Notes under the pieces: model-generated
The model's database searches: none
What the model saw: only the letters and a program-made list of their open reading frames with translations
Told to the model about the DNA's origin: nothing
Position numbers and translations under genes: made by a program
Assembly: GCF_964355755.1 (NCBI RefSeq)
Contig: NC_092676.1
Span: 3,449,888-3,513,887 of the forward strand
Length of the DNA: 64,000 nt
Origin: Antedon mediterranea
Taxonomy: Eukaryota > Animalia > Echinodermata
Direction of reading: 5' to 3'
Shown here: positions 885 to 62,892 of the stretch, piece by piece
How the letters are laid out: every line of letters begins with the position of its first letter
Position numbering within the stretch: position 1 is the stretch's first letter

Positions 885-2897
885 ATGTTTATAAAGACTT
901 ACCATCAACATTGTACATTGCTGTTGTACAAGTGCCTGGTTATATTGTATGGTATACTTCACTGTTGTTGTGCACAATCCTATACTTTTACAAAACAACC
1001 AAAATCTGTTCTTGTTGGACAAGGAAACACAGCATCGTTATCGTGTGAATGGAAACCAGCATTGAATGAAAACCATGTCGTTTACTGGTCAGCATACCCT
1101 CATGTTGATGGGTCGCAAGCAATCGATAGGTCAACTTTAAAGTACAATTTAACAACTATAGCAACATCTGCATATCTTTCCATTTTTAATGTTGATTACA
1201 ACGATGTAGGAAGATACAGGTGTGATATCTCGGAAGGTGGTGATTTATTCAGTCTTTCTGAAGAGGCTTCTGTAGTTCTAGGAGAAATAACGTGCAATCC
1301 AGAGAATGACAATGGTGAGATTGGAACAACGCTGACATGTTCTTATTTTACTTCTTATTATTCACGTGATATTGATTTACTATGGTATGAACACAGGAAA
1401 CAAATTACATCAGAAATGCAACAAAATAAGGCTATAAAATCAAGAGCTTTGACTGTTGAAGACGATGGAGCTGTATTTACTTGTACAGCCACAATTAGAT
1501 CTCAAAATCAAGTGATAGGAACTTGTAAAACTACTCCTCTAATATTGACTATAGCTGCCAAGATTGAACAATCACCGCCAGGTACACTTCAGGTTGGAGA
1601 TAGCTTTAACCTTACCTGCTCAGGGAAAGGTAATCCTGATTATTATAATTATACATGGACGTGGAATAACAAACCGGTAGGATCGTCACCAAATGAAAGA
1701 CGATTTTCAAAAGATAATGTGCTTACTGTGAATAGTGTTTCAAGCGGTGCAAATGGCAAAAAAGTTACTTGTACTATTAGTCGCAGTGGTCGTAACAGCA
1801 GCATAGCAACCTATACAGTGAACGTTACAGAGCAAATGACTACACGTTTGCAGTCGACATCTGGTACACCTACCCGCAACTCAATTACACGTCATCTAAC
1901 AACCAAAGTCCCTGATGACGTGTCCCCAACAGTAATGACAACACGTTTACAGTCGACACCAGGTACACATGCACACAAGCCAATTACGGTCGGACTATCA
2001 ACAACCAATGTCGCGCATGACGTTTCACCAGTAATGACTACACGTTTACAGTCGACACTTGGTACACGTACGTACAAGTCAATTACAGACCTATCAGAAA
2101 CTAATATCCAGGATATTAATTCTACAATAGTAATCATTGTCATCATTGGCGTAGTTGCGATAGCTCTTGTGATTTTGATAACAGCATTTATAATTTACTT
2201 TTTAAAGAAAAGGCACAAGAAACAGTACGACAAAGAAGAGACAAAACCCGAAAATGTACCATTGAAAGAACCAGTTTACGGTAACACTGAACAAAATATT
2301 AACAGTTCTGAAATAGATAATAATCTGTGTGAAAATGTGGAGACTATGTACGCAGAACCTGACATGTCAGCAAATGGGTGCCATGTTAAATATGACACAC
2401 TACAGAATGCAGTAAACATTGATAAAACTGATGATTATTTAGGTAAGCCAATGAAACCTAATGAAGCGAGTGATGCTAAGTCAAGAAAAAGGACAAGTGC
2501 CGAAAATACGGATATAATACAAGTAAGACCAACCGGACCAACCAAGGCCCACACTGTTAAAGAAAGTCTTGAAGATCTGTATTCTAAGCCTAACAAAAGG
2601 AATTCGAAAACGTTGATCGAGGCCCACAGTAAAGAGAATCTTGAAGATTTGTATACTAGGCCTAATAAGCCGACTGCAAGCAGACCAACCAACAATGTTA
2701 AAGAAAGTATTGAAGATCTGTATTCTAGGCCCAACAAACCAACGACAAGAACGCCAGATATTACGCACGAAGATCCTACTAAGAAAAACGTAGAAGGCTT
2801 AACGTACGCAGAAATAGAGTTTACAAGCGGTACGTTCCCAGCCCCTGAACCACAAGACTACGGGCTTGATTACGCAACTGTACAGATTAAGAAGTAA
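885..2897 (+). CDS. g1: single-ORF IgSF receptor (V type A, 2 C2-like Ig, mucin-like stalk, TM, tail T1 with 3x EDLYxxPNK and two C-terminal ITIMs)
   Basis: 670 aa ORF. Signal peptide ends HCCCAQ. Ig motifs LSCEW..W..DVGRYRC, LTC..LLWY..FTC and LTC..WTW..VTC. TTRLQST stalk repeats. TM IVIIVIIGVVAIALVILITAFIIYFL followed by KKRHKK. ITIM matches LTYAEI and LDYATV. Confidence 0.9.
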   Translation: MFIKTYHQHCTLLLYKCLVILYGILHCCCAQSYTFTKQPKSVLVGQGNTASLSCEWKPALNENHVVYWSAYPHVDGSQAIDRSTLKYNLTTIATSAYLSIFNVDYNDVGRYRCDISEGGDLFSLSEEASVVLGEITCNPENDNGEIGTTLTCSYFTSYYSRDIDLLWYEHRKQITSEMQQNKAIKSRALTVEDDGAVFTCTATIRSQNQVIGTCKTTPLILTIAAKIEQSPPGTLQVGDSFNLTCSGKGNPDYYNYTWTWNNKPVGSSPNERRFSKDNVLTVNSVSSGANGKKVTCTISRSGRNSSIATYTVNVTEQMTTRLQSTSGTPTRNSITRHLTTKVPDDVSPTVMTTRLQSTPGTHAHKPITVGLSTTNVAHDVSPVMTTRLQSTLGTRTYKSITDLSETNIQDINSTIVIIVIIGVVAIALVILITAFIIYFLKKRHKKQYDKEETKPENVPLKEPVYGNTEQNINSSEIDNNLCENVETMYAEPDMSANGCHVKYDTLQNAVNIDKTDDYLGKPMKPNEASDAKSRKRTSAENTDIIQVRPTGPTKAHTVKESLEDLYSKPNKRNSKTLIEAHSKENLEDLYTRPNKPTASRPTNNVKESIEDLYSRPNKPTTRTPDITHEDPTKKNVEGLTYAEIEFTSGTFPAPEPQDYGLDYATVQIKK

Positions 2898-4041: not shown

Positions 4042-4198
4042 AAGCTCTGTCTACACTATCAAACTAGTTTGACGAAAAAGGTGTGATGTGCCCAAATATG
4101 GTAGTGATATTCCAAAATATGGTAGTGGTATATCATGTCCATATATGGGAACATCACATTTTGTTGTCACATGAAGTTTGGTAGTGTAGACAAAGCTT
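4042..4198. mobile_element. Short MITE (other copies at about 5035-5182, 46250-46381, 50692-50843)
   Basis: TIRs aagctctgtctacactatcaaact / agtttggtagtgtagacaaagctt, with internal ccaaatatggtagtg repeats. Confidence 0.8.
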
Positions 4199-6138: not shown

Positions 6139-7854
6139 ATGGCTCATTCTCAATATTGGACATTGCTGTTCTTCAAGTTTCTGATTATATTTCATATATC
6201 TCACTGTTGTCGTGCGCAGTACTACAATTTTACAGAACATCCACAATCGGTTCTCGTTGCAGACGGACAAACTACAACGCTATCGTGTGAATGGACACCA
6301 TCATTGAATAACAACCATCTCGTAACATGGACATACGATCGTGTTAATAGTCCTAAACGAATTGAAATTTCAGATACAAAATACGCATTAATGAACGAAG
6401 CAACATCTTCAAGTCTTTCCATTTCTAATGTTGGCTCTGGTGACGTAGGCAACTACATTTGTGAGATATTCGAATGTGATTCATACAACAGTGTCTCATC
6501 TTCTACATTTGCTTCTCTAGTATTAGGAGAATTGATATGTAATCCGGAGAATATTGTTGATATAGGAACAACGCTGATATGCTCCTTCACCTCTTCTGAT
6601 AATTCATATATTATTAATTTACTATGGTATAACAACGGAAAACAAATAACTTCGGGACAACAACAAAACAATGATTTAGAATCAACGGCTCTGACTGCCG
6701 AAGACGAAGGAGGTGTATTTACTTGTAAAGCCACTATCGGATTTCAAAGTCAAGCGACAGGAACTTGTGAAACTACTCCACTAGTATTTCCAATAGATGC
6801 AGAGATTCAACAATCACCACCAGGTCCACTTCAGGTTGGTGATAGCTTTAATCTTACCTGCGTAGGGAAAGGTAATCCTGAAAATTATAATTACGAATGG
6901 ACGTGGAATAACAACCCAGTAGAATCTATGACAGATAGTCGATTTGCAATTGGCAATATGGTTATTGTGAATACTGTATCAGGCAGTGACAATGGCAAAA
7001 TGGTTTCTTGTACTATTAGTAGTAGTGGTTACAGAAGTATAGCGAGCTATACAATAAACATTTTGGATGAGACGTCGAGTACAACTACAAGTATGTCGAC
7101 ACCAGATAGGCCTACACGTACGCAAAAACCAATTACGGCGGTCAGACTCACAATACCTGATGACCCGGATGACATTTCAACAACAGTAATGACTACACGT
7201 TTAAAGTCGACACTAGATACACGTACGCAAAAACCAATTACGGTCAGACTCACAACACATAATGTTCCGGATGACATTTCAACAACAGCAATGACTACAC
7301 CAGGTACACGTTTGCAAAAACCAATTACACATCAACTCACAACACATAAAGTCTCGGAAGACGTTTCCGCAACAGTAGACCTAATGAATACACGTTTAAA
7401 CACAACACCTGTTACTGTAACGCGTTCTATTACAGAAATCCTAACGGTTGTAATTATCGTAGTTGCAATTTTACTCGTCGTTTCTTTGATAATAATAATA
7501 AGCCTATGTGTTTATTTGCAAAAAAGAAAAAAGAAAAACACAACTCCTTCAAATCGACTGTCAAATAATCTTGAGCACGTTTACTATGACATTACGTCAT
7601 CTAGCGCACACGTGACCTCGACAGCCAGTAACACTAAGTATGATTATGTCATACACCCGTTCACACGAAATACGGAAGAATCCACTCCTGAGTACCTTGA
7701 ATTGGACGATGGTTTCCAAGATGGCGCACCAAAATCAGCAAGTAATACAGCCGCTGATTACGATGATGTTGCATCGGAACAAACAGATACTAATAACAAA
7801 GAGTACAAATACGAAAATGGTATGCTGCGGGATAAAGGTATCAGAGAGACATAA
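6139..7854 (+). CDS. g2: IgSF receptor (V type B, tail T2)
   Basis: The ORF track starts at TTG 6124; the first ATG at 6139 (MAHSQYW) matches paralog starts. Three Ig domains, about 4 stalk units, TM VVIIVVAILLVVSLIIIISLCVYL. Tail motifs YYDI, YDYV, EYLEL, DYDDV, YEN. Confidence 0.9.
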   Translation: MAHSQYWTLLFFKFLIIFHISHCCRAQYYNFTEHPQSVLVADGQTTTLSCEWTPSLNNNHLVTWTYDRVNSPKRIEISDTKYALMNEATSSSLSISNVGSGDVGNYICEIFECDSYNSVSSSTFASLVLGELICNPENIVDIGTTLICSFTSSDNSYIINLLWYNNGKQITSGQQQNNDLESTALTAEDEGGVFTCKATIGFQSQATGTCETTPLVFPIDAEIQQSPPGPLQVGDSFNLTCVGKGNPENYNYEWTWNNNPVESMTDSRFAIGNMVIVNTVSGSDNGKMVSCTISSSGYRSIASYTINILDETSSTTTSMSTPDRPTRTQKPITAVRLTIPDDPDDISTTVMTTRLKSTLDTRTQKPITVRLTTHNVPDDISTTAMTTPGTRLQKPITHQLTTHKVSEDVSATVDLMNTRLNTTPVTVTRSITEILTVVIIVVAILLVVSLIIIISLCVYLQKRKKKNTTPSNRLSNNLEHVYYDITSSSAHVTSTASNTKYDYVIHPFTRNTEESTPEYLELDDGFQDGAPKSASNTAADYDDVASEQTDTNNKEYKYENGMLRDKGIRET

Positions 7855-10694: not shown

Positions 10695-10697
10695 TAA

Positions 10698-11291: not shown

Positions 11292-11369
11292 TTAAGGAAA
11301 GGAATTATAATATATGTACCCTAAATGATATAAGGAATACAAACTTACATTGGCTAAAAAGTTGTATGG

Positions 11370-11580
11370 TACACCCTAAACATTGGACTATGGTATTTTA
11401 CAAAATTATGCTTGATTACATTTAAGTATTATACACTTGTTAAAAACCACCGATATCGGTTATCGTTGCAAAAAGACAAATAACAAAGTCATCGTGTGAA
11501 TGGGCACCAGAAGTTTATGCAAACGATGTACTGAATTATGGTATAGATGGAGTGGTAAACAATTTATAAATTCAGAAACA
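11370..11580 (+). pseudogene. Old degraded signal-peptide/V-domain remnant (duplicate at about 57995-58110 plus 60009-60120)
   Basis: aacattggactatg..., gttatcgttgcaaaa... and tcatcgtgtgaatgggcaccag resemble QHWTLL, VLVA and SCEWTP coding sequence. Confidence 0.6.
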
Positions 11581-12253: not shown

Positions 12254-14101
12254 ATGGCTCATCATCAATATTGTACATTGCTGCTGTACAAGTGCCTGGT
12301 TATATTGTATAGTATATTTCACTGCTGTTGTGCACAATCCTATACTTTTACAGAACATCCACAATCGGTTCTTGTTGCAGAAGGACAAACAGCAAAGATA
12401 TCGTGTGAATGGACACCTAAATTGAATGAAACCCATCATGTTGCATGGAGATACTATCATTTTAGTACAAGAACGGGTCAAATAATTGAACGTTCAACGT
12501 CAAAATACATTTTCAGAAAAGGTACAACATTTTCAAATCTTTCCATTTTGAATGTTGATCCTAATGATGTAGGACACTACCGGTGTCGTATCTCCAAAGG
12601 TGATTTTGTATACAGTTTTTCTGAATTTACTTATGTAGTGCTAGGAGAGTTAACGTGTAGTCCAGAATATGATTATGGTGACATAGGAACAACGATGACA
12701 TGTACTTATACTTCATCTGATCCTGTATATATTATTGATTTACTATGGTATAAAGAGGGAAATGAAATTACTTCAGCAGCACAACGAAGTAATATCAAAG
12801 AATCAAAGACTTTGACTAGTGAAGACGATGGAGCTGTATTTACTTGTAAAGCTATCCTCGGTTATCAAGTGATAGGAACTTGTGAAACTACTCCTCTAAT
12901 ATTGACTATAGATGCAGAGATTGAACAATCACCACCAGGTCCACTTCAGGCTGGGGATAGGTTTACCCTTACCTGTTCAGGGAAAGGTAATCCTGATTAT
13001 TATGAATGGACGTGGAATGGCAAACTTATAGGATCGTCGACAGATAAAAGTCGATTTGCAATAGGTAATGTGCTTACTGCGACGAGAGTATCAAGCAGTG
13101 CCAATGGAAAAATAGTTACTTGTACTATTAGTCGTAGTGGTCGTACCAGCAGTACAGCGAGGTTTACATTAAACGTGCTAGAGAACATTTCCAGTAGGCC
13201 TACTACTACACATTTTCAAACAACACCAACGCAACAGGTCGTTACAGACAAACTACTACCAACTACACGCTTACACACTACACGTTTACAGTCGACACGT
13301 ACGCAACAAGTCGTTACAGACAAACAACTGCCAACTACAAGCTTACGCACTACACGTTTACAGTCGACACGTACGCAAAAAGTCGTTACAGACAAACTAC
13401 TACCAACTACACGCTTATACACTACACGTTTACAGTCGACACGAACGCACCAAGTCGTTACAGACAAACTACTGCCAACTACACGCTTACCCACTACACG
13501 GTTACAATCGACACGTACGCAACAAGTCGTTACAAACAAACTACTACCAACTACACGCATACACACTACACGTTTACACACTACACGTTTGCAGTCGACA
13601 CGTACGCAACCATTCATTAAAGACCAACTCTCAACTAATATCTCATCGGTTGACGAGCCCCCAACACTAATGGTTGTTATTAGTGTACTTGCAATTCTGC
13701 TCGTAGTTTCTGTAATAACAACGATATACATGTATTTGCAAAAAAAAAACGTATCTAGAGGCAACATAATTCCTTTAAATAGACCACCGAATAATATTGA
13801 ACACAATTACGATTACATTGTGTCTTCAGACACACAGATCAACACGACAGGCAAAGACACACACACGTATGATTATGCCATATATCCGTGTACACGAATC
13901 ACAGAGAATATCAGTGCTGAATACATTGAAGTAGAAGACAGTTTCCACGAGAGCCCACAAAAACCAGAACAAAATATGACCACAGTCGAGAAAGATGATG
14001 TGTTCTTACAACCAACGGGTATTTGCAGCAAAGAGGCCACGTACGAAAATGTTGAATTGCGTATCAAAGGCATAGCAACTTCTGACAATATGATAATTTA
14101 A
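12254..14101 (+). CDS. g3: IgSF receptor (V type C, 72-bp VNTR stalk, T2-related tail)
   Basis: 615 aa ORF with the family architecture. Tail motifs YDYIV, YDYAI, EYIEV, TYENV. Confidence 0.9.
   Translation: MAHHQYCTLLLYKCLVILYSIFHCCCAQSYTFTEHPQSVLVAEGQTAKISCEWTPKLNETHHVAWRYYHFSTRTGQIIERSTSKYIFRKGTTFSNLSILNVDPNDVGHYRCRISKGDFVYSFSEFTYVVLGELTCSPEYDYGDIGTTMTCTYTSSDPVYIIDLLWYKEGNEITSAAQRSNIKESKTLTSEDDGAVFTCKAILGYQVIGTCETTPLILTIDAEIEQSPPGPLQAGDRFTLTCSGKGNPDYYEWTWNGKLIGSSTDKSRFAIGNVLTATRVSSSANGKIVTCTISRSGRTSSTARFTLNVLENISSRPTTTHFQTTPTQQVVTDKLLPTTRLHTTRLQSTRTQQVVTDKQLPTTSLRTTRLQSTRTQKVVTDKLLPTTRLYTTRLQSTRTHQVVTDKLLPTTRLPTTRLQSTRTQQVVTNKLLPTTRIHTTRLHTTRLQSTRTQPFIKDQLSTNISSVDEPPTLMVVISVLAILLVVSVITTIYMYLQKKNVSRGNIIPLNRPPNNIEHNYDYIVSSDTQINTTGKDTHTYDYAIYPCTRITENISAEYIEVEDSFHESPQKPEQNMTTVEKDDVFLQPTGICSKEATYENVELRIKGIATSDNMII
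13231..13620 (+). repeat. Coding tandem repeat with a 72 bp / 24 aa unit (QQVVTDKLLPTTRLHTTRLQSTRT), 5 copies plus a partial copy
   Basis: The unit start gcaacargtcgttacagac recurs at 13231 and 13303 and onward at the same spacing. Confidence 0.9.
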
Positions 14102-16610: not shown

Positions 16611-18071
16611 ATGGCTCATCATCATTGCTTGTTGTGCCTGATTGTATTGTATAGTATATTCTACGACTGTTTTGCACAAATATATCGATTCACAAAACAT
16701 CCACAACCGGTTCTTGTTGCTGAAGGAAACACAGCAAGGTTATCATGTGCATGGATACCAGAATTGGATGAACGGCATAACTTTCGATGGGTATTCTTCC
16801 CTCAGGATGGTGGTCAGTTTCAAGTACTTGAGAGATCAAATTCAAAATACAATTTAACAAATAACGCAACTTCTTCACATCTTTCCATTTCTAATTTTGC
16901 TTCTAGTGACATAGGAAAATACAGGTGTGATATCAGACACGACAGAGACACTGTTTCTAAAGAGGCTGTTGTAGTGCTAGGAGAAATAACGTGCAATCCA
17001 GAATATGATAATGGTGAAATAGGAAGAACGATGACATGTTCTTATACTTCTTCTTATTCTTCAAATTTTATTTATTTACAATGGTATAAATCAGACGAAC
17101 AAGTACAATCAGACACCCAAGACAAACACGTTATAGAATCAATAGTTTTGACTGCTGAAGACGATGGAGCTGTGTTTACTTGTAAAGCTATCCTTGGTTA
17201 TCAAGTGATAGGAACTTGTGAAACTACTCCGCTAATACTGACTATAGATGCAGAGATTGAACAATCACCGCCAGGTACACTTCAGGTTGGGGATAACTTT
17301 ACCCTTACCTGCTCAGGGAAAGGTAATTCTGATTATTATGAATATGAATGGACCTGGAAAAACCAAGACTCGTCGCCAACAGAAACACGATATTATGCAA
17401 TAGGTAACTTTCTTTTTGTGACAAAATCTAGCAGCAACGCTATTATTACGTGTACTATTAGGCGTAGTGATCGCGTCAGCAGTGAAGTGTCCTATACGAT
17501 TGACATGTCAGAGAATTCAGAAAAACCTACAAGCATCTACCAAACTGATAACAATGATGTATACCCAAATAAATCAACATCGGTAATAGAATTAATATTA
17601 ATTGCGGTTGGTGTACTTGCTATTTTACTCCTCGTTTCGATAATAATAATATGCGTATATTTCCAAAAAAGAAACGGATCTAGGAACAACACAACCCTTG
17701 CAAATCAACCATCAATTAATATTGGGCCTGTTTATCATGATATTGCATCACCAGATACACAAGTCACCACGGAAAACAATGAAAACATGACGTATGATTA
17801 TACTATGTCCTGCACACGTGCTACTGCAGAATCCAATGACGTTGTCAACGAAAACCTTTGCATTAATTGTCATAATATGGCAACACCAAACGCAGGTATT
17901 AACACCAAACAAACAACACAAAACGAAACATTTAAATTAACTTCGCGTTTGAACAGAGCTGGTGTCAGTGAGGATAACTACGAGGGGTTCACATTGACCA
18001 CCATTGAAACGCCTACTGATGTAAACGTGTATGAAAATAAATCGGCTGGCCTACGTACAAAAGCAGTGTAA
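16611..18071 (+). CDS. g4: IgSF receptor (V type D, almost no stalk, short Tyr tail)
   Basis: ATG 16611 (MAHHH). Three Ig domains, TM LILIAVGVLAILLLVSIIIICVYF. Tail motifs VYHDI, YDY, NYEGF, VYEN. Confidence 0.88.
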   Translation: MAHHHCLLCLIVLYSIFYDCFAQIYRFTKHPQPVLVAEGNTARLSCAWIPELDERHNFRWVFFPQDGGQFQVLERSNSKYNLTNNATSSHLSISNFASSDIGKYRCDIRHDRDTVSKEAVVVLGEITCNPEYDNGEIGRTMTCSYTSSYSSNFIYLQWYKSDEQVQSDTQDKHVIESIVLTAEDDGAVFTCKAILGYQVIGTCETTPLILTIDAEIEQSPPGTLQVGDNFTLTCSGKGNSDYYEYEWTWKNQDSSPTETRYYAIGNFLFVTKSSSNAIITCTIRRSDRVSSEVSYTIDMSENSEKPTSIYQTDNNDVYPNKSTSVIELILIAVGVLAILLLVSIIIICVYFQKRNGSRNNTTLANQPSINIGPVYHDIASPDTQVTTENNENMTYDYTMSCTRATAESNDVVNENLCINCHNMATPNAGINTKQTTQNETFKLTSRLNRAGVSEDNYEGFTLTTIETPTDVNVYENKSAGLRTKAV

Positions 18072-18419
18072 AGTATGCTATGAATTAAACTGGTAAATTC
18101 CAAACACAAAGTAGGCCTCGACTTTCGCTCGAATGTCTTTTTATTGGCAAATTATAATTGGAACTACTCGATTAACAAAGTCAACGCAAGGGCACTAAAA
18201 TTGCCCCGACAATCACTTTAAATATCAACTACAAAGTAAAGTAAACATTGCCTATACAATCTCCAAAACAGTCAAATTTGAATATGGAATGTTAGGGATA
18301 ATTTCATTGAATTATATATTTAATTTTATCTTGTCGATTAGTCTGTTAAATAATAACAGTTAGATCATGGCACTTAGTCTAGTGCTTCGATGTCAAAAAC
18401 ATGTGTTTCTTGAAGCATC

Positions 18420-18720
18420 AGAACCAACGATAAAGAGGCTGAAACAGTAAATTACATCTCAAAGATATAACAAGCATGACAACATCTGACGACTAGAACA
18501 TGTACGAAAATGTGACATTGCTACCGAGACTGAGAAAAGATGGAGTAACCGTTATGGACAACCCCGAGGATGACGTCAGCCTGGTGCACGCGAGTACAAT
18601 CGATACAAATGTGTACGAAAATTCACCACTACGCACAAAAGCAGTGAAATCTGCTCAGAAAAAAAACATAACTAAACGTATAGAATTTACAGAACAAGCA
18701 ACGAAAACTGCACCTTATCA
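18420..18720 (+). pseudogene. Orphan C-terminal tail fragment of the T3 type
   Basis: Translates to ...EDDVSLVHAST..NVYENSPLRTKAVKSAQKK, homologous to the g5/g6/g8/g12 C-termini. No ectodomain attached. Confidence 0.7.
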
Positions 18721-20444
18721 TAGAAACTTGAATGTTTTGTCCCTAAATAAGAGGTTTATGCCAGGTATGATCTATTAAGGTTTTAATTAGCCTATGTGAA
18801 ATTGTTTACCATTTGCAAACTACTGTCCGAACAGGACGGACCATGATAGTTCCATGGTAAGAGAAATAGAAAAGTAGGCTAAAGGTAAATACTGTAATTT
18901 TGTTTAAGGAAGTAAATAAATAAAACTATTATATTAGAAATAATCAACTCTGAGATGAACAATAACCAGAAAAGGGAAGGGTAGGAAGTATTAACATATG
19001 ATTAGTGAGAATTAAAATCGTACAGAAAAGAGGAAAGAAAAACAGAATAAAGTTCATCGATAACATATCCTTATTTGGCATGAAATAAGCAACAATAAAT
19101 ATCAATATATGCCAGTACACGTGATCGTCCAAAATGGTTTTTCTATGTTTCTATATAAAACTACGATTTTATACGTAATTAGATTTCTATATTAATATGA
19201 TAATTTAAATATTAAAGTTTAAGCAAGAACTTATAATACATTGATCGATATTTACACGTTGCAAATTAGTAATTTTGTGTATATATATTTCATATCATTT
19301 ATTTATATAAATATTTCTATTTTATATTTTTGCTTTACGGCTATAATTGTTTTTACTACAGTAAGTTTAAACTAGTTCAGACTTTTGTTTTCTTACCAGA
19401 ATTATTAAATAAATAATATCAGATATCACAAATGTGTGAAAGAATACGTTTAAAATGGTAACGTACCGTAATGTAAATATATAGTATCTTATTTCATAAT
19501 GGATAACATTAAAAATGTTATTTTATTCTCTCAGCTTGAGTGTAGGCCTACTACTTACAGTACGGTCATGTAAATATAGTATCTTATTTCATATTGGATA
19601 ACAAAAATATATTTCATTGAATATGTAAACACAAATGCATTTTCGAAATATGGCCAAACACAGCAACGAAACGTTTCATTAAGGCATCCTTGTAAACATT
19701 GAACTGTATATAGTTCTTGATACATTTAGAACATTTCTGAAAAAACTGTCCCTAAATGAAACATGTTTAAAAGACATCTACACTAGAGTAACAAACCTTC
19801 ATGTCAGTTGTTGTGGAGTTGGGCTCTTTTGAAATACATTACATTTCTCATGGACGAAAAATAAATGAAAAGAAATATTTTGAATAAGAAAATGCATGAT
19901 GTATGTATGTAATTGTCTGTAAATATTTTTCCGTAACATTTACCAGTACGTTTATTGTTACATTTATCATTACGAATCGACCTTTGACATGTGACGTAAC
20001 CGCATCGTTCAATATTGCTTGTACTGTATATACAAATCTATTTTAATGCATTGTGTATTATAGGCCTAACAAATAACAGTCAAACGAATTCTATCGTAAT
20101 GTTATACGTCATACGCATCTCAACAACGATTATGAAGGAAATTGTTGAAATTGCTGGGTTGCTGTAATTTTATTTTATTAGAAACATTATCATTCTGATG
20201 ATTTTCTGAAATATCAGATTTTAGCAACACGGCAAGTGAAGCGTTTTGACAAATCATGGCCACGTGTCCCGCAGAAAAAAAAAATACAACTAATATTGAA
20301 AAACTCTCTCCATAATTTCAAGTTCAACTTTATCTACGGCGGCCTAGCTCAACACGGATGTTCTTAGCTGCAGCCGTGCTATAGAAAGCACAGCAGTTGT
20401 GTACACAACAAGAGCAGTAAATAAACTTACAATAATAAAAAACA

Positions 20445-31214: not shown

Positions 31215-31216
<2 letters not shown>

Positions 31217-31255
<39 letters not shown>

Positions 31256-37768: not shown

Positions 37769-37805
<37 letters not shown>

Positions 37806-41699: not shown

Positions 41700-43694
41700 A
41701 TGGCTCATCATCAACATTGGACATTGCTGTTGTACAAGTGTCTGGTTATATTGTATGGTATTTTTTACAGCTGTTCTGCACAATCCTATGCTTTTACAAA
41801 ACAACCTCAACCTGTTCTTGTTGGACATGGAAATACAGCAACGTTATCGTGTGAATGGACACCAGAATTGAAGGAGGAAGAACATTACACGATATGGTCT
41901 TTCGACGGTGCTGGTGAGCCTCAACGAATTGATAAATTAGATAACAAACATAGTTTAACAACTGAATCGACCGTTTCAAATCTTTTCATTTTCAATATTA
42001 CTTCGTATGATGTCGGATACTACTGGTGTACTATCTTTGACGGTAAAAACTACAAAAATTCTGAAAGTACGTATATCGTTCAAGGAGAAATAACGTGCCT
42101 TCCAGAGAATGGTTATGGTGACATAGGAACAGTGATGTCTTGTTCTTATCCTTCTTCTTATCTTATAAATGATATTGATTTACGATGGTATAAAGACAAA
42201 AAAGCAATTACAACAAAACGACTGCACAATAATATTTTAGAATCAAGAGTTTTAACTGCAGAAGACGATGGAGTTTTATTTACATGCACAGCCATACTTT
42301 CATCAAATGAACATTTTGTGATGGGAACTTGTAAAACTACTCCTCTAATATTGACTATAGCTGCCAAGATTGAACAATCACCACCAGGTCCACTTCATGT
42401 TGGAGATAGCTTTAACCTTACCTGCTCAGGGAAAGGTAATCCTGATTATTATAATTATACATGGACGTGGAATGACAAACCTGTAGAATCGCCAAGTAAA
42501 AGTCGATTTGCAATAGATAATGTGTTTACTGTGAAGGGTGTATCAAGCAATGCCAATGGCAAAATAGTTACTTGTACTATTAGTCGTAGTGGTCATAACA
42601 GTAGTGTAGCAACCTATACAGTGAACATTACAGAGCAAATGACTACACGTTTGCGGTCGACATCTGGTACACGTACGCGCAACTCAATTACACGTCAACT
42701 ATCAACCGACGTCCCTCATGACGAGTCCCCAACAGTAATGACTACACGTTTACAGTCGACACCAGGTACACATACACACAAGCCCATTACGGTCAGACTA
42801 TCAACAACCAATTTCGCGCATGACGTTTCAACAGTAATGACTACACGTTTACAGTCGACACTTGGTACACGTGTGCACAAGTCAATTACATACCTATCAG
42901 AAACTAATATCCAGGATACTGATTCTACAATAGTAGTCATTGTCATCATTGGCGTAGTTGCGATAGCTCTTGTGAGTTTGATAACAGCATTTGTAATTTA
43001 CTTTTTAAAGAAAAGGCACACGAAACAGTACGACAAAAAAAAGACAAAACCCGAAAGTGTACCATTGGAAAAACCAGTGTACGGTAACACTGAACAAAAC
43101 ATTAACAGTTCTGAAATAGATAATGACCTGTGTGAAAATTTGGAAACAATGTACGCAGAACCTGACATGTCAGCAAATGGGTGCCATGTTAAATATGACA
43201 CGCCACAGGATGCAGTAAACATTGATAAAACTTATGATTCTTTAGGTAAGTCAATGAAACCTAATGAAGCAAGTGATTCTAAGCCGAGAAAAACGACAAG
43301 TGCTGAAAGTACAGATGCAATACAAGTAAAACCGATCAAGGCCCACAGTAAAGAAATTATTGAAGATTTGTATTCTAAGCCCAACAAACGGAATGCGAAA
43401 ACGCTGATCGAGGCCCACAGCCAAGAGAATATTGAAGATCTGTATACTAGGCCTAATAAACCGACTGCAAGCAGACCAACCAAGGCCCACAATGTTAAAG
43501 AAAGTCTGGAAGATCTGTATTCTAAGCCCAACAAACCAACGACAAGAACGCCAGAAATTACGCACGAAGATCCTACTAAGAAAAATGTAGAAGGCTTAAC
43601 GTACGCAGAAATAGAGTTTAAAAGCGGTACGTTCCCAGCTCCTGGACCACAGGACTACGGGCTTGATTATGCAACAGTACAGATTAAAAAGTAA
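41700..43694 (+). CDS. g10: IgSF receptor (V type E, tail T1 with two ITIMs)
   Basis: 664 aa ORF. Near-identical to g1 from GTCKTTPLILTIAAK onward; V and Ig2 are divergent. Confidence 0.9.
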   Translation: MAHHQHWTLLLYKCLVILYGIFYSCSAQSYAFTKQPQPVLVGHGNTATLSCEWTPELKEEEHYTIWSFDGAGEPQRIDKLDNKHSLTTESTVSNLFIFNITSYDVGYYWCTIFDGKNYKNSESTYIVQGEITCLPENGYGDIGTVMSCSYPSSYLINDIDLRWYKDKKAITTKRLHNNILESRVLTAEDDGVLFTCTAILSSNEHFVMGTCKTTPLILTIAAKIEQSPPGPLHVGDSFNLTCSGKGNPDYYNYTWTWNDKPVESPSKSRFAIDNVFTVKGVSSNANGKIVTCTISRSGHNSSVATYTVNITEQMTTRLRSTSGTRTRNSITRQLSTDVPHDESPTVMTTRLQSTPGTHTHKPITVRLSTTNFAHDVSTVMTTRLQSTLGTRVHKSITYLSETNIQDTDSTIVVIVIIGVVAIALVSLITAFVIYFLKKRHTKQYDKKKTKPESVPLEKPVYGNTEQNINSSEIDNDLCENLETMYAEPDMSANGCHVKYDTPQDAVNIDKTYDSLGKSMKPNEASDSKPRKTTSAESTDAIQVKPIKAHSKEIIEDLYSKPNKRNAKTLIEAHSQENIEDLYTRPNKPTASRPTKAHNVKESLEDLYSKPNKPTTRTPEITHEDPTKKNVEGLTYAEIEFKSGTFPAPGPQDYGLDYATVQIKK

Positions 43695-50221: not shown

Positions 50222-51955
50222 ATATCTATAAGATTGCACTACGGTATATACCGGTACTGCAATGGTAACAAGTTAAAACCAAACCAACTTCTTTTTCTCG
50301 ATACTGGAGTAAAACTATAATAATTAGGCCTATAACGCCTTCGATTTAAATTCCAAAGAAAAAAACACACACATTAACGCAAACGGTTAAAGTATGTTGT
50401 TTTTGCTTTAGATTTTCCTTCGTGGTTCATCAATTGTACGGTAAAGTACCGGTATTACTGGTAATAAGTTAAAACCAAACCAATTTTTCTTTCTCCATAC
50501 TGATAGTAAACTCTAATTTAAAGACTAAAACTAACTCCTTCGAGGAAGCAACGGCAATAGAAATTAAAGGGCGACAAATTTTACTTAATTCGTTTTTTAT
50601 GACATTAAATGGTCGCACAGACACTTCTGTTCATATCAAAATAAACAAGTTACGAAAACAGTAAGCCCTAATAAGGAAACAAGAGCATATTAAGCCCTGT
50701 CCACACTATCTAACTTTATGTAACAAGTTATTGCCCATAAACGGACATGATGATGTCACATCACAACCATATTTGGGCATACCACTACTATGGGCACATC
50801 ACACGTTTGTTGTCAAACTAGTTTGATAGTGTAGACAGAGCTTAATGCTGGTTTGGACCAAAAATAGATCGGAAATGAAAAATCGGAACATAAAGGCTTG
50901 CTTACATATATACTTTCTTATTTACATACCACCTGTCCTATTGGTATATAAGTACTCTAGGCGTTGTTTTTTGTTCTTCTGATGATGAGAATTGTTTCTC
51001 GAAACATGTCACATTTTAAGGCAGTTTGCCTATTCGTTAAATGCCTCGCTATACTCATATTAACTCGTAAGTTCGGTGGAATCATTCATGATTTATCTAT
51101 TATATAATATGATTGTATGATTACCGTTATTTTGATATTAGTAAATGAATTTAGAAATACCTTTTTACTAAACGAATCGGAATAAAATAAAACTGAGATA
51201 ATAACAGAAGCTGTGCGTGTGAAGTATACAACAACAGTTTCAAGGTAAACCATCCAAGTATTTTCATTTCGATTGGTTTGTTAAAAATGTCTAAATTCCT
51301 AATCCGGAGGTATGAAGTAAATAAACACTGTATGGGGCATCATTGCATTATCACTGGATAACATACCACGCAATATAATAATAACACATATGAAATGATC
51401 TGCTAAAATAACTTTATAATCGGATAAACAATTATTTCTATATGATTGGATATTGTATTGGGCACAAATGAAATCATATCGCGTGAGGCTTTAGTAATAA
51501 TGTCTTTCAAAAGAATGCGTTAAAACATCAACTATTCTTACATTGTAGTCATTACCATAAATGATTGGAATCTACAATAGTCCTAAACAATCTCAATTCT
51601 GGTAAGGAAGTTACTTTAAACCGATCAAAAGCAATATTTGGGAATTGACATTCACAAGAATGGCTCATTCTCAATATTGGACATTGCTGTTTTTCAAGTT
51701 TCTGATTATATTTCATATATTTCACTGCTGTTCTGCACAGTACTATAATTTTACAGAACATCCACAATCGGTTCTCGTTGCAGACGGACAAACTACAACG
51801 CTATCGTGTGAATGGACACCAGCATTGAATAACAACCATCTCGTAACATGGACATACGATCGTGTTAATAATCCTAAACGAATTGAAATTTCAGATACAA
51901 AATACGCATTAATGAACGACGCAACTTCTTCTAGTCTTTCCATTTCTAATGTTGG

Positions 51956-54900
51956 GTCTTTCACACCCCCGCTGTTGTTCCATTGGAAGAGATGGTCTCC
52001 TTGTAGTCAACCGCACTGAACCACTCTCACTTAAGCATGAATGTATTATTGTCCCTCGCCCCGTATTAAACGGACTGCTGACATCACTTCACGTCCGGCT
52101 AGATCACCCAACTAGTCACCAACTTAAGTTATCCGTTCGCCGCCACTTCTTTGCGCTTGACTTGGACAAAACCATCGAACAGGTGTCAGAATCGTGTCAT
52201 CACTGTGCCTCGATCCGTACTGTACCCACCACTGCAATTGAGCAGTCCACTGATGATCCTCCGTCGAAGCTCGGAGTCACCTTTGCCGCCGATGTCCTAA
52301 AACGCGAGCGTCAACTTATTCTTGTTGTCAGAGAGACGGTGACGTCTTACACCCTTTCGTGTTTAATCAGCGATGAGAAGCACGATACTCTCCGCGATAC
52401 CTTGATTCGCTTATGCATTGGCATGTGCCCCGTGGAGGGCCCCTCAGCAACCATCCGCACAGACCCTGCCCCGGGCTTCATGGCACTCGTCCACGATCCC
52501 GTCTTACTGAAACATATGATTTCGATCGAAATTGGCAGAGTTAAGAACATCAACAAAAACCCGGTTGGAGAGAAAGCTGTACGCGAATTTTCAGAAGAGT
52601 TACTTCGGCAAGAGCCTGGTGGTGGTCCCATCTCACCGACGTTGCTTGCTGTCGCCACATCTCGTCTTAACTCCCGTATCCGAACACGAGGATTGTCGTC
52701 TCGCGAAATGTGGACACAGCGAGATCAGTTCACTCATGACCAAATCCCTATTTCTGACCGCAAGTTGATTATCAGCCAACAGCACCTCAGAGCCTCTAAT
52801 TTATTTATTTTTTATTTATTTATTACGGTATATATAAAATTACAAAAACAATAGCACATAGCTAATAACGTTTGTATTACAATAAAAAATATTGAAATGA
52901 AATCTATAAAAACTACAATAATAAATTCGGAATATACAATTACAAAATTTCACAATTATTCACTAAAATTTAAAATATTAAGAATTTTAAAATATATACA
53001 CAATTTTGGAAAATACAATTGCACTTTTATTTAAAAAAAAAACGAAAAATTTACATTATAATATACTAAAGTAAAACCTATCTGCACTGTTCTTTATTTG
53101 ATTATTATTATTATTATTATTATTATTATCTTTTAGTATAGGTGGCAACATTGCACAATTATTCACTAAAATATTCACAACATTAAAAATCTACAAAAAT
53201 ATATTAAATTTCGGAAAATAAAAGTTTACAGTGTATATTAATATTAAACGTTGTCTGCAGTGCTCTTCATTTGATTATTTTAGGCGGTAATATTGCACAA
53301 TCATTTATTATATATTTTTTTAATTTCATTTTTCACAGGAGGAATTTAATTTGTTTATAATATAGGGAATCGTTGAATTTTTATATCGGTTAGTTTTTAT
53401 TTTAGGTAATGTAAATCTATTGGGGTTACGTAATCTAGATATATTAGGTCTTTCAGCAGGCAGCATATTACGATGTCTCTCTGACTTAAGGATACCTTCT
53501 CCAAATTTTAATGTTAATTTTTCTCTACGTTCAGCAAGGCTGGTAATTTTGAGTTGAGTAAGGGCCGTATCATAGCTCTCATAGTCCTGGCCAAGTATAA
53601 TTTTGCATGCTCGCTTTTGCAACCTCTCAATTTCATTGGTCTGTTGTTTTGTAATGCTAGAGTGCCAAACAACACATGCATACTCAGTCAGCGGCCGAAT
53701 ATAAAGTTGATAAATACTTAACATGTCACCAATAGGTGCACTATATCCTCTCAATGCATAAAGAAGAAACATTCTTCTACTTGCTCTAGAGATAATACTT
53801 TTGATTTGGATATCCCAACCTAAATTGTCTTGTAGCTCAAGACCTAATAATTTCATACTATGTACAGTATCAATTTTTTCACCACTTATAGTAAATTGGG
53901 GGTAGTTTATTTGGGATTTCATAAAATTTATATTAATAGCATGGCACTTCGAAGGCTTGGGTAGCATGTCATTTTGTTTACACCAACAACTCAAGGAATC
54001 TAAATGGGATTGAAGTTCTGATGATGTACTATTATTTTTTATATTAATTATTTCTCCCAGTGTTAGATCATCCACAAATTTCCAACGATTATCAGTGGTG
54101 TTACCCGCATCATTCACCATAACAGTAAATATGCTGGGTCCCAGTTTGGTACCCTGGGGGACCCCACACGTTATAGTTCTTAGTCCAGAACAATGTCCCT
54201 TAAATTTCACACACTGGGTGCGATTCATCAGAAAACTGCTAATCGTTGGAATTATCGACGGTCTAACACCAGATTCTATCATCTTTGAAATAGCAACATT
54301 ATGGTTTATCCTATCAAACGCAGTTGTGAAATCAACTGTACATAATGTGGCGTAGGTCCCTGGCACATCAATATTGGATATAACCGTATTCAACATATCT
54401 ACTAAGTAGTGTGTTGTACTAGTTCCTCTCACGTTACCATACTGTTTACAATCCAATACTGGTTCGAAATCCGTTTTTAACCATCCCGCTAGGAATGATT
54501 CAAATACTCTACCCAATATTTTAGTTAGTGAAATAGGTCGTAATTGGCCAACCATTGTCGGTTTTTTAACTTTAGGTACTTGTACAATTGATGCGGTCTT
54601 CCACACAGTTGGAAACACCCCTTCGTTTAGACAGGTATTAAAGATTAAAAACAGGGGTTGTGCTATTTCAAAAGAAAACAGCTTAATGAGTTTCACCGGA
54701 ATATCATCTGGGTGGCCAGATTTATTGGAGTTTAATTTGTTTAAACTCTTCCAAATTTCTCCATGGTATATTTTGGGGGGTGGTTTTGTAGGCAAGTACG
54801 AGGGAAGTGTTTCCAATCTGAGTGGTGGAAGCTGGCAACATACTCTTGAGAAATGTTCATTAATTTGTTCAGCCTGTTCTTCAACAGATTCACCATAATT

Positions 54901-55715
54901 ATTTAATTTAACATTGTCTGACTTCTTGTTATATCACGCGCACAGCGAAAAGTCTAAGGCACCCGTCGCGAGTGCAGCACCTGACGTTTCTATTACGGTT
55001 GGTGATTTAGTCTACCTGTGGACAGATCGTCGCAAGACCTGTGCACGAGATCGCTATCTCGTTGTTTCTGTAGATGGAAAGTGGTGCAACGTCCGAAAGT
55101 TTACGCACTCACAATTGAGAAGCGCTACTTATCGTGTAAAGAAATCAGAGTGTTTTACTGTACCGACTGACGTTCATCATTCTCCCACACCAACCTCACA
55201 ACGCCACTGCGACACCTCTGATGAAGAACCTGATTTCACAGTTGATCCGTCTCCATTTCCTCCACCCGAGGTACCGTCAACTCTTTCTGCCTCTCCTGAT
55301 GAGGTGAACGACAAGTCATCATCCATACAGACCCCGGAAGAATCACCAATGGAAGTTCCAGCACAGTTGTCTCATCGCACATCCACACGTTCACGCAGAT
55401 TTCCTAGACATCTCGCTGACTACGTTCTTGATTTATAATGTTTCATTCGTATTATATAGTTAAGTTTCGACCATTCAATTTAGATTTTGAGTGCTTTTGC
55501 TTGCTTTGTTTTGTTTTTGACTTTTGTGTTTTATGAGAAGAGAAAAAAAAAATGATTACGCCAGTCTAGCGCCCCCTATCTAGATATATATATCATGGCC
55601 GCTGGTTGTTATGTTATTGTTGTGATATTTGGTTTTGACGAATAAAGATCTTATTCTACTTGAGTCTTACGTGTCCGGTCGTCTTTATTGTGGTGTGCCT
55701 TTTGCCTTACTGGCG
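51956..55715 (+). mobile_element. 3' portion of a Gypsy-like LTR retrotransposon (integrase, PPT, probable 3' LTR), split by a LINE
   Basis: HVRLDHP..CHHC, FAADV, IRTDPAPGF and NKNPVGEKAVRE (HHCC plus DDE). The frame rejoins as RASN|HAHSEKSK across the LINE. Purine tract at about 55535-55552, then tgattacg...aataaa. Confidence 0.78.
52801..54932 (-). mobile_element. 5'-truncated non-LTR retrotransposon (L2/Crack-group-like RT, ORF 53326-54816)
   Basis: LRPISLT, VDFTTAFD, GVPQGTKLGP and WKFVDD. A-rich tail at 52801 on the minus strand. Confidence 0.88.
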
Positions 55716-58110
55716 ATGGTATAACGACGGAAAACAAATAACTTCGGGACAACAACAAAACAATGATTTAGAATCAACGGCTCTGACTGCCGAAGACGAG
55801 GGAGGTCTATTTACTTGTAAAGCCACTATCGGATTCCAAAGTCAAGCGACAGGAACTTGTGAAACTACTCCGCTAGTATTTCCTATAGATGCAGAGATTG
55901 AACAATCACCGCCAGGTCCACTTCAGGTTGGCGATAGCTTTAATCTTACCTGCTCAGGAAAAGGTAATCCTGAAAATTATAATTACGAATGGACTTGGAA
56001 TAACAACCCAGTAGAATCTATGACAGATAGTCGATTTGCAATTGGCAATGTGGTTATTGTGAATACTGTATCAGGCAGTGACAATGGCAAAATGGTTTCC
56101 TGTACTATTAGTAGTAGTGGCTACAGCAGTATAGCGAGCTATACAATAAACATTTTGGATCAGATGTCGAGTACAACTACAAGTATGTCGATACCAGATA
56201 AGCCTACACGTACACAAAAACCAATTACGGTCAGACTATCAACACATGATGTCCCGGATGATATTTCAACAACAGTAATGACTACACGTTTAGAGTCGAC
56301 ACTAGATACACGACGTACGCCAACATCAATTACACATCAACTATCAACACATAATGTCTCGGAAGACGTTTCCACAACAATAGACCTAGCGAATACACGT
56401 CTACACACAACACCTGTTACTGTACCGCGTTCTATTACAGAAATCCTAACGGTTGTAATTATCGTAGTTGCAATTTTACTCGTCGTTTCTTTGATAATAA
56501 TAATAAGCCTATGTGTTTATTTGCAAAAAAGAAAAAAGAAAAACACAACTCCTTCAAATCGACTGTCAAATAATCTCGAGCACGTTTACGATTACATTAC
56601 GTCATCTAGCGCACACGTGACCACGACAGCCAGTAACACTAAGTATGATTATGTCATACACCTGTTCACACGCAATACGGAAGAATCAACTCCTGAGTAC
56701 CTTGAATTGGACGATGGTTTCCAAGATGGCGCACCAAAACCAGAAAGTAATACAGCCGCTGATTACGATGATGTTGCATCGGAACAAACAGATACTAAAA
56801 ACCAAGAGTACAAATTCGAAAATGGTATGCTGCGTGTTAAAGGTATCAGAGAGACATAAAAAAATAAGGTACGCAACTATCAATTTTTTACGCATGTATT
56901 GGAACTACGATTACGTCACATTGGTGCGTACACGGCGTTGTTTGCTGATGAACGAGTCAATCGTGTACGAAAATTGTCTGATTTATATCTAAAGCAAACG
57001 TTAGACGCGTACAGTATGAAACTTAATCAAATAAATCAATCATTGTATAGAAACCACTATCCCAACAGAGGTCTTGTTTAACATATAGCAAGATACATCT
57101 GCGAAGAAAAACAAGTAAATTGTAATTCTCATAACACGAAGGACAAAATGGACCGCACCATGGATCTAGTTTAAGTTTTAAAAAGGATATGCTTTCAAAT
57201 AAATTTTTATATAATATTATAACAGTTATTTTATATAAACCACTACCACCCCCATGGTCTAATATAAATCTAAATAAATAAGTGTACAGTTATATGCATT
57301 TAAAAAAAAAGAGTAAACTGTAGCCCGTTATAGCAAAACATTTTAAGCTTGTATAGACGCAACAAAAGCGAATTGACCAATGACAAGCGACAGTTCGAAT
57401 AATACATTGCTTATGATTGGTCAAATCATTTACGTTGCGTTACGTCCTTGTGTTGCGTCTCTAGAGAGAACCAAGCATTAGGGGGAAAATGTACGCAATA
57501 TTAGTACAAAATTATATATTAGGAAGGAAGGAATATAGATGCACAGATTATGTTTAAATAACATAGTATAAAATGACCCCAAGTAACGAGAGGAAAGCCA
57601 TGAATAAACGTTATACTTATTTGATCATCATCAGGAATCGATGATTAAATAAAGATTGAAACGTTGAATCATGGCTTGCCTCTCTTTATTACTTAAGAAA
57701 AGAACAACACTAGATTATTAACGAGCAATATGACAAGAATAACACAGGAATTAGGAAGGCAGGAAGTTTTACGAAACTATTGTAAAAATGTATTGGTTTA
57801 TCAAGTTGTCCGGTATCGTGTTTTGTTTTCACTTTCATTATGTTTCTAAGTGTACAATGAACGAATAAAATAATTCCAGTCAATTATCTATCAACATATT
57901 ATTGGTTAAGGAAACGAATTATAATATAAGTACCCTCCTAAATGATATTATGTACGAATATACAAACTTTCATTGTCTACAAAGCTTAATAGTTCACCCT
58001 CAACATTGGACTATGTTGTTTTACAAATGCTTGATTATATTTAATTATTATACACTTGTTAAAAACCACCGAAATGAGTTATCGTTGCGAAAAGAAAAAC
58101 ACCTACGTCA

Positions 58111-60885: not shown

Positions 60886-62892
60886 ATGGCTCATCATCAA
60901 TATTGTACATTGCTGTTGTACAAGTACCTGATTATATTGTATAGTGTATTTCACTGCTGTTGTGCACAATCTTATACTTTTACAAAACATCCACAACCGG
61001 TTCTCGTTGCTGAAGGACAAACAGCAACGATAGCGTGTGAATGGACACCTGAATTGAATGAAAACCATGATATTTCATGGAGATACCATCCTGTTCTTAG
61101 AAGGGGTCAATTAATTACAAAATCAACATCAAAATACACTTTCACAAAAGGTGCAACATTTTCAAGGCTTTCCATTTTAAATGTTGATTTTTATGATGTA
61201 GGAACATGCTTGTGTCGTATCTCCGAAGGTGATGGTGTATACAGTTCTTCTAAAACTACTTATGTAGCGCTAGTATTAGCGTGTAGTCCAGAATATGATA
61301 ATGGTGAAATAGAAACAACGATAACATGTTCTTATACTTCATCTTATCTTCTATATTCTATTGATTTACTATGGTATAAAGACGGAAATGTAATTACTTC
61401 AGCAACAACACAAAATAGTCTTTCAAAATCAAGGATTTTGACTGCTGAAGACGATGGAGCTGTGTTTACTTGTAAAGCTTTCATCTCAAATCATGTAATA
61501 GGAACTTGTGAAACTATTCCGCTAATATTGAACATAGATACAGAGATTGAACAATCACCACCAGGTCCACTTCAGGTTGGTGATAGCTTTAACCTTACCT
61601 GCTCAGGGAAAGGTAATCCTGATTATTATAAGTATGTATGGACGTGGAATGACAAACCTGTAGGATCGTCCCCAGATAAAAATAGATATGCAATAGCTAG
61701 TGTGCTTACTGCGAAGGATGTACGAAGTACCAGTGACAAAAAAGTTACTTGTACCATTAGTCGTGATGGTCGTAATAGCAGTACAGCGAGACATACAATA
61801 AATGTTGCAGAAAATACGCAAAGTACAACTGCATGTTCACGCACACCACACGGTAGGTCTACTGTTACAGACCCACTATCAGCAAACAATGTCACAGACA
61901 ATGAGCCACAAACATTGATTATTGTCATTGGCGTAGTTGCAACAGTTATTGTGATTTTGATAACAGCAATTGTAATTTACATTTTACATAAAAGGCGTAA
62001 GAAACATGACAAAAAGACAAAACCTGAAAATGTACCATTGAAAGAACCAATGCATGGCAACACTGATCAAGAAATTATTATTAAAACGCGCGTAGATGGC
62101 CCTCTGCGCGAAACGTTGGTGACCGATGTGGCTATATATGATGAACCTACAATGTCAGACACACATGGAAACTGGGAGATTGTTTACGAAGACCCTGACG
62201 TACCACCACACGACCAATTAACAGAAAAAGATAAGTATGATTATGTTGCATCAGAAGAAATGACAGTTGAAAGAGAGAGCAAAACCGAGTATGACTATGC
62301 GGCAACAACAGACACCCACAGTGCCGAGAAGACAACTGAACGACACAACTATGATTATGTGGTATCAGCAGACATCCACAGAACAGAAAATGAATATGAC
62401 GATGTAACATCAGCAGACGATCAAAACGATGAAACAGACAGGGAAAATGAGTATGATTATGTGGAAACACCAGGCATAGGCTCCACAGAAAAAGAAGGCT
62501 TTGCAGAATACATTGAACTTGTTGATGACAACGCCGATGTCGAATGTCATCAGAGGAAGCCACTAACAACTAATATGCCTGCTGCATCCAAGTACAATGA
62601 TGTTTCAATGTCACAAACTTATATTTCCATAAATATTAGAGCAAATGATAATGAGGCTGAGTACGAAAATAGTAAAGTGCATCGTCCCAAAGGTGTCTCG
62701 ACTTCTGATAACTTAAAGACCGAAAGTGTTAAATTATCACAGAGATCAAGAAGAGATGGAAAAACCATTTCAGATAATCGCGAAGATGACGTCACCAATG
62801 TGCATGCGAGTAAATTTGAAGTACGTGATACAAACGACGTGTACGAAAATGCATCGGTACGCAGAAAAGCAGCGAAGTGTGCTAAGAAATAG
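60886..62892 (+). CDS. g12: IgSF receptor (V type C, short stalk, tail T3)
   Basis: 668 aa ORF. V resembles g3/g5, TM and tail resemble g6/g8, and the 3' flank resembles g5. Confidence 0.88.
   Translation: MAHHQYCTLLLYKYLIILYSVFHCCCAQSYTFTKHPQPVLVAEGQTATIACEWTPELNENHDISWRYHPVLRRGQLITKSTSKYTFTKGATFSRLSILNVDFYDVGTCLCRISEGDGVYSSSKTTYVALVLACSPEYDNGEIETTITCSYTSSYLLYSIDLLWYKDGNVITSATTQNSLSKSRILTAEDDGAVFTCKAFISNHVIGTCETIPLILNIDTEIEQSPPGPLQVGDSFNLTCSGKGNPDYYKYVWTWNDKPVGSSPDKNRYAIASVLTAKDVRSTSDKKVTCTISRDGRNSSTARHTINVAENTQSTTACSRTPHGRSTVTDPLSANNVTDNEPQTLIIVIGVVATVIVILITAIVIYILHKRRKKHDKKTKPENVPLKEPMHGNTDQEIIIKTRVDGPLRETLVTDVAIYDEPTMSDTHGNWEIVYEDPDVPPHDQLTEKDKYDYVASEEMTVERESKTEYDYAATTDTHSAEKTTERHNYDYVVSADIHRTENEYDDVTSADDQNDETDRENEYDYVETPGIGSTEKEGFAEYIELVDDNADVECHQRKPLTTNMPAASKYNDVSMSQTYISINIRANDNEAEYENSKVHRPKGVSTSDNLKTESVKLSQRSRRDGKTISDNREDDVTNVHASKFEVRDTNDVYENASVRRKAAKCAKK

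Follow-up and report, generated by a model that had tools for sequence, protein, structure and literature searches.

Do the outer recognition domains of a clustered family of immunoglobulin (Ig) receptors stay with their own signalling tails, or have domains and tails been recombined, and if so, by what process? The question is raised by a stretch of the Antedon mediterranea genome (the window; 64 kb, 34% GC, zero N), in which nine intact and three broken receptor genes (g7, g9 and g11) lie. We consider it probable (about 0.7) that this is an intronless array of three-Ig receptors mixed through conversion and unequal crossing-over among paralogues, in which immune-type pairs share their outer domains, one tail type (T1) being predicted to be inhibitory and the other (T3, on g6 and g8) being tyrosine-rich and free of ITIMs.

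Composition of the array

Each intact gene is a single ORF on the plus strand encoding 486–737 aa, and "intronless" is used here of the coding region, as judged from the DNA. The common layout is a signal-peptide-like start, three Ig domains, a Thr/Ser-rich stalk, a transmembrane (TM) segment and a tyrosine-rich tail. A Pfam scan recognized Ig domains in all eight of the receptors scanned (g8 was left out) and Fn3 in none of these eight. The predicted fold of the ectodomain is three Ig domains (pLDDT 86.5, second model); the first model (pLDDT 47.8) was unusable.

All of the following lie on the plus strand. The intact genes are g1 (885..2897), with V+Ig2 of type A, a g10-like Ig3 and stalk, and a T1 tail with a twin ITIM; g2 (6139..7854), with a V type of its own and a T2 tail; g3 (12254..14101), with V type C, a repeat stalk and a T2-like TM segment and tail; g4 (16611..18071), with its own V type, a short stalk, a divergent T2-related tail and patches in common with g3 and g5; g5 (20939..22852), with V type C and a hybrid tail, the proximal part its own and the distal part T3-like; g6 (25967..28027) and g8 (32917..35130), both joining V+Ig2 of type A to a T3 tail; g10 (41700..43694), with V+Ig2 of type E and a T1 tail; and g12 (60886..62892), with a g3-like 5' flank, V+Ig2 of type C, a g6/g8-like TM segment and tail, and a g5-like 3' end and flank. 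The pseudogene g7 (28302..29116) has a frameshifted V fused straight to a T2-type TM segment and tail, without Ig2, Ig3 and stalk, and g9 (36520..37132) consists of scrambled relics, namely a T3 piece, a signal-peptide piece and a T2-type TM segment and tail. The g2-like g11 (51660..56859) is interrupted by retroelement sequence at 51960–55715 and has lost about 185 bp of the gene. Two further relics are a decayed signal peptide and V (11366..11554) and the distal part of a T3 tail (18384..18721). The block g1-g2-g3(5') matches g10-g11-g12(5'), and g12 stands where g3-g4-g5 would be in this duplicated block. None of the sequencing runs listed for the window is recorded as RNA. In run X1, depth was zero in two of 30 bins, both intergenic; RNA is hinted at by this and is not counted here as expression.

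Combinations of outer domains and tails

By nucleotide identity, two groups of V domains were found, g1/g6/g8 (93%) and g3/g5/g12 (84–88%), while g2, g4 and g10 each stand apart (61–74% to the others). The V of g1 is 93.5% identical to that of g6, 93.2% to that of g8 and 69.0% to that of g10; the corresponding values for g12 are 87.9% (g5), 84.0% (g3) and 69.6% (g8). The tails fall into the groups g1/g10 (91%), g6/g8/g12 (89–95%) and, loosely, g2/g3/g4 (57–62%), with g5 as a hybrid. The g1 tail is 91.4% identical to that of g10 and 45.8% to that of g6, and the g12 tail 90.2% to that of g8 and 88.6% to that of g6; g3/g2 reach 61.8% and g5/g8 71.1%, the last composed of a proximal part at 38–66% and a distal part mostly at 83–94%. 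The V and tail identity tables thus contain every V/tail combination listed in the preliminary description of this locus, and the mosaic combinations are confirmed as real. That description had taken V as the exchanged unit. V is indeed exchanged, but not alone: the unit is V+Ig2, since Ig2 tracks V (g1/g8 91%, g1/g10 78%). The Ig3 and stalk of g1 group with those of g10 (90% and 93%). At the amino acid level, the ectodomains of g1, g6 and g8 are 84–85% identical in V and 79–89% in Ig2.

Recombination within the coding region

In a PHI-type test on the ectodomain, none of 5000 permutations gave a value as low as that observed. The trees of separate domains are incongruent, as reassortment had been expected to make them: V+Ig2 rejects the groups {g1,g10} (AU test, p = 0.0012) and {g6,g8,g12} (p = 4 × 10-10), and TM+juxtamembrane rejects {g1,g6,g8} (p = 0.001) and {g3,g5,g12} (p = 2 × 10-5), these p values being optimistic as the groups were picked after the identity tables had been seen. 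Ig3 alone rejects neither grouping (p = 0.050 and 0.18). Synonymous divergence switches between V+Ig2 and the region from hinge to TM, from 0.032 to 0.192 for g1/g6 (p = 2.5 × 10-5), from 0.266 to 0.068 for g1/g10 (p = 3.5 × 10-6) and from 0.103 to 0.428 for g12/g3 (p = 5 × 10-9), so that selection alone cannot account for the pattern.

The clearest switch is located in g1. A tract shared with g6 and g8 runs from 958 to 1517 on the plus strand and covers the end of the signal peptide, V and Ig2, with a synonymous divergence of 0.03–0.05 as against 0.16–0.19 downstream. Informative sites in g1 support g8 over g10 by 139:23 before 1517 and by 28:82 after 1527 (permutation p = 0.0005), and third positions by 44:5 and 6:30, respectively; MaxChi for g1 against g8 and g10 gave p = 0.0005 and holds on third positions alone. 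The right breakpoint (1517–1527) coincides with the start of the best-conserved block of the ectodomain (columns 221–260; mean pS 0.13–0.20, pN 0.08–0.10). For g1, the data support the proposal that recombination took place inside an uninterrupted ORF and switched at the conserved Ig2/Ig3 hinge. At its first few sites and in both flanks, g1 resembles g10, consistent with a conversion tract that begins at 958 and measures about 560 bp. The switch in g12 lies within Ig3 or the stalk and is placed imprecisely (61406–61835); from about 62590 the gene becomes g5-like, and its downstream flank is 98% identical to that of g5. Triplet tests were not significant for g4 (g3 versus g1, p = 0.057) and g5 (g3 versus g1, p = 0.23).

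Exchange extends beyond the V and tail modules to which the preliminary description had assigned it. Exchange between those modules stands, but confinement to them does not, as short ectodomain patches and the flanks are mosaic too. Bonferroni-significant shared tracts were found in six of the 36 gene pairs (30 pairs had none); several are just 27–42 codons long, and the short ones include g3/g4, g4/g5, g6/g10 and g3/g10. The intergenic DNA is a patchwork with stretches at 97–99% identity. Upstream, g12 is identical to g3 at 504/552 positions, g1 to g10 at 531/563, and the near-allelic g6/g8 and g2/g11 at 588/593 and 551/567; downstream, g12 is identical to g5 at 581/592. Because short ectodomain patches are exchanged, the flanks are mosaic and some chimeras are pseudogenes, the process is general tandem-array recombination and not a dedicated rewiring device.

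On this basis, g1 would be a conversion product with two switches, its start and flanks g10-like and its V+Ig2 g6/g8-like, and g12 would be a crossover product, g3-type on the left and T3/g5-type on the right; the position of g12 in place of g3-g4-g5 fits unequal crossing-over. Where introns are lacking, exchanges would be resolved in homologous coding blocks with the frame preserved, and out-of-register exchange may have produced the pseudogenes g7 and g9.

Tail motifs and selection

The T1 tail ends in two ITIM-consensus motifs, their tyrosines 22 residues apart, after three or four YxxP motifs. In g1 this twin ITIM (LTYAEI ... LDYATV; 2799..2882, plus strand) follows the repeated YxxP motifs, and in g10 it lies at 43596–43679. 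A C-terminal twin ITIM appeared in only 7/5000 shuffles of the g1 tail and 5/5000 of the g10 tail, and between the two tails pN (0.06) is below pS (0.19). The T3 tails have 15–19 tyrosines, with an excess of those that precede D/E, together with YxN motifs and a single YxxL; in g6, nine of the 15 tyrosines are in Y-D/E motifs, a value matched in 1/5000 shuffles. YxN and Y-D/E motifs are binding sites for SH2 domains of the Grb2 or Nck type. T3 had been called ITIM-lacking, which holds for g6 and g8 but not for g12, whose tail matches the consensus once (SKYNDV), as often as chance would give (P = 0.38); single matches in g5 and g12 are at chance level, and a T3 tail without an ITIM is expected by chance about half the time.

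Many Y-D/E and YxN motifs could let the T3 tail dock SH2 adaptors, and an activating role for it is a guess from these motifs, while an inhibitory role of the T1 tail is predicted with motif support. ITIMs bind SHP phosphatases, according to the portion of the Hydractinia study available (10.1101/2022.03.04.482883), and the T1 tail may likewise recruit SHP-type phosphatases. Since the ITAM pattern YxxL/I-x6-12-YxxL/I occurs in none of the nine tails and no charged residue lies inside the TM segment of the nine receptors, opposing signalling is something that we only infer. From the sequences we also infer that the exchange may rewire ligand specificity to different outputs; what is observed directly is that synonymous sites and flanks are of mosaic descent and that the twin ITIM is present.

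Among g1, g6 and g8, 10 of 18 columns around the F-G loop and G strand of V are variable, as against 13 of 85 elsewhere in V, the 18-column window having been chosen by eye. In V and Ig2 overall, pN is close to pS, and pN exceeds pS in V+Ig2 at p < 0.05 (uncorrected) in two of seven pairs. These values hint at diversifying selection following exchange.

Alternative explanations

Were there no exchange at all, unequal selection on V and tail might mimic reassortment, through fast divergence of V in g10 and of the tails. The fast evolution of V and Ig2 agrees with this, but synonymous and third-position sites switch together with the non-synonymous ones and the non-coding flanks switch as well; the reading is largely refuted by the synonymous-site switches, and we find it scarcely credible. 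An artefact of assembly, by haplotype switches or by retention of a second haplotype with g10-g12 allelic to g1-g5, would account for the near-allelic stretches beside g6/g8, g2/g11 and g12/g5, and none of the 32 contig matches listed for positions 1–8200 (from four of nine runs, with 125,568 further matches) bridges the g1 breakpoint at 1517–1527. Against it, neither side of any junction copies another gene of the window (best donor 84–97%), the two switches in g1 are separated by about 560 bp and g12 has two or more, the window is free of N, and run X1 has g1 Ig3 (1617–1867) and tail (2235–2758) at 0 differences. Contigs from four of the nine runs contain g1 Ig3 and tail at 0 differences, as well as a second version of the tail with 47 differences. 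An artefact is thus very improbable, and a simple misjoin in particular appears unlikely because no segment copies another window gene and the switches are a few hundred bases apart. The contrast between type A on T1 and type A on T3 concerns three genes, g1, g6 and g8.

The same recombination could also be neutral, an unstable tandem array turning over while selection favours no particular match of tail with ligand domain, perhaps in adhesion or developmental proteins like KirrelL. Chimeras of such a kind arise in tandem arrays with or without selection. Flanks as mosaic as the genes, short patches exchanged within ectodomains, three broken genes with additional relics and a weak excess of pN over pS would all be expected, and kirrelL is itself an intronless Ig gene for which a developmental role is described (PMC8903837, accessible text). 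However, the twin ITIM is retained in both g1 and g10, the T1 tail has pN well below pS, and V variation is concentrated in the CDR3-equivalent part, so that we hold purely neutral turnover to be unlikely. A stronger form of the immune-type reading is doubtful, though worth stating: a retroposed intronless ambulacrarian family would have evolved pairing independently, hinge conversion, germline and in frame, repeatedly copying V+Ig2 between inhibitory twin-ITIM tails and non-ITAM activating tails with many phosphotyrosines, to give a combinatorial, haplotype-variable ligand-by-output repertoire.

Comparison with known receptor systems

The process itself is known. "Merohomogenization", in which ligand-binding domains are homogenized between opposing receptors, is described for KLRC/NKG2, Ly49 and PIR (PMC3210942), and homogenized ligand-binding domains for Xenopus CEACAM pairs (PMC5112662), as far as the accessible parts of these accounts extend. 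The array resembles such vertebrate pairs, as there described, in its near-identical ligand-binding parts, divergent signalling parts, ITIM-bearing partner and conversion or recombination within clusters. It differs from them in being made of single ORFs, whereas those genes are multi-exon with tracts described by exon, and in its non-ITIM partner without an ITAM, whereas opposing signalling in those pairs is shown or motif-supported; as far as tested, it is not orthologous to them. Among the features that define paired receptors, the array has clustered similar ectodomains, an ITIM-bearing partner (g1, g10) and a homogenized ectodomain with distinct tails (g1 versus g6/g8), but an ITAM or charged TM residue in the other partner is absent, and it is therefore placed outside the class, though evolving alike.

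In Hydractinia, the Alr genes form a cluster of Ig receptors whose tails have an ITIM or an ITAM, and Alr12A/B are >90% identical except in domain 1 (64%), according to the available text (10.1101/2022.03.04.482883). Alr and the array are alike as clustered invertebrate Ig receptors with domain-level swaps, but the multi-exon structure, exon shuffling, true ITAMs and Fn3-like domain described for Alr are all absent from the array. The Botryllus fester co-receptors (FcoR) are described as type I V-Ig/C2-Ig proteins of a variable cluster with ITIM, hemITAM or core YxxL tails (PMC12065747, in part); unlike the array, they have a Sushi domain, are spliced and pair with fester genes, and the likeness is one of layout. 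Echinoderm KirrelL, an intronless Ig gene proposed to be retroposed, is presented in the accessible text (PMC8903837) as a developmental fusion gene that has a single exon and is conserved throughout the echinoderms. It is likened to the array by gene structure alone, both being intronless echinoderm-type Ig genes; no KirrelL sequence was among the search matches. An intronless invertebrate Ig family exchanging in frame is apparently new, no description of one having been found in our literature search (subscription journals lay largely outside it). For paired-receptor evolution by partial homogenization, most documented cases are vertebrate, and ITIM/ITAM Ig clusters are on record for a cnidarian and a tunicate, so that an echinoderm case would bridge these examples. 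Intronless genes can also be amplified whole, which would make conversion tracts mappable across individuals and chimeric receptors directly testable.

Relatives of the array

A full-length g1 search gave no matches among 7996 candidates. Matches in the Atlas were generic Ig-receptor clusters, a profile search of a 1.84-billion set was dominated by multi-Ig giants, and the ectodomain profile retrieved nine generic Ig proteins among longer proteins. Fold matches in the PDB (examined for affinity to SIRP, CEACAM, Siglec and nectin) were generic three-Ig structures with 12–19% identity and TM-scores of 0.27–0.43, and PDB sequence matches were headed by titin and VEGFR. Among these generic neighbours in fold and sequence, adhesion molecules occur no less often than immune receptors, which counts against the immune-type reading.

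Ranked by single-stretch score of the ectodomain profile, the best 10 of 162 proteins come from Amphiura, Saccoglossus, Glandiceps, Anneissia and Ptychodera, and none is characterized, which points to an echinoderm or hemichordate origin of the array; they include Amphiura XP_072038515, Saccoglossus XP_077864653 and XP_077865053, Glandiceps XP_078001388 and Anneissia XP_033121820. These ambulacrarian relatives have a cysteine/tryptophan pattern in common with the array, and several end in two ITIM-like YxxL/I motifs, as in T1. They differ in sequence (about 22–23% identity where measured, in Amphiura-type rows), and some have extra Ig domains. No reassortment was seen among four aligned Amphiura-type proteins. 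Two Amphiura-like relatives (about 750 aa) are present in ENA assemblies, one of them on a 4.8 kb contig, which hints that the relatives may likewise be single-exon.

Transposable elements

The LTR element at 46837–50221 was recently inserted; its 472-bp LTRs are 99.8% identical to each other, its termini are TG...CA, and it is flanked by a target-site duplication, ATAT. The ORF of this element (47643–49676) encodes SCAN, protease and integrase zinc-binding domains, and no reverse transcriptase (RT) domain was found in this ORF. The presence of SCAN and the position of the integrase after the protease suggest that this element is Gmr1-like. Retroelement sequence (51960–55715) is also nested inside the broken, g2-like receptor gene g11 (51660–56859), where an integrase-like ORF (51916–52854), an RT ORF on the opposite strand (53326–54933) and a third ORF (54899–55438) were recognized.

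A truncated ORF directly 3' of the receptor gene g10 (43822–44643) looks, as judged by eye, like a LINE reverse transcriptase cut down to its 3' portion, and this ORF is absent behind g1; a second LINE-like fragment lies on the minus strand at 30144–30668. The short, high-copy element that occurs in inverted pairs (4040–4198, 5035–5182, 46252–46381 and 50692–50845) is MITE-like, and it dominated the contig depth in all four sequencing runs compared with positions 1–8200.

Variation among the receptor genes

The number of tandem Thr-rich repeats sets the differences in stalk length among g1, g2, g3, g8 and g10, with a unit of 72 bp in g3 (13200–13630) and of about 99 bp in g1, g8 and g10; receptor height would change with this number. 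The regions upstream of g6 (25201–25967) and g8 (32150–32917) are 99% identical (588/593), whereas their V domains differ by 7%, which could reflect either recent promoter homogenization or fast change of the V domain. In g12 (60886–62892), a Cys replaces the conserved Tyr preceding the F-strand cysteine of the V domain, and one codon is deleted at the V/Ig2 junction; this V domain may fold poorly.

The relative from Anneissia (XP_033121820), annotated as a single 1123-aa protein, contains two consecutive signal/Ig/TM/tail units, and this duplicated layout suggests two tandem genes from a similar array, fused by annotation.
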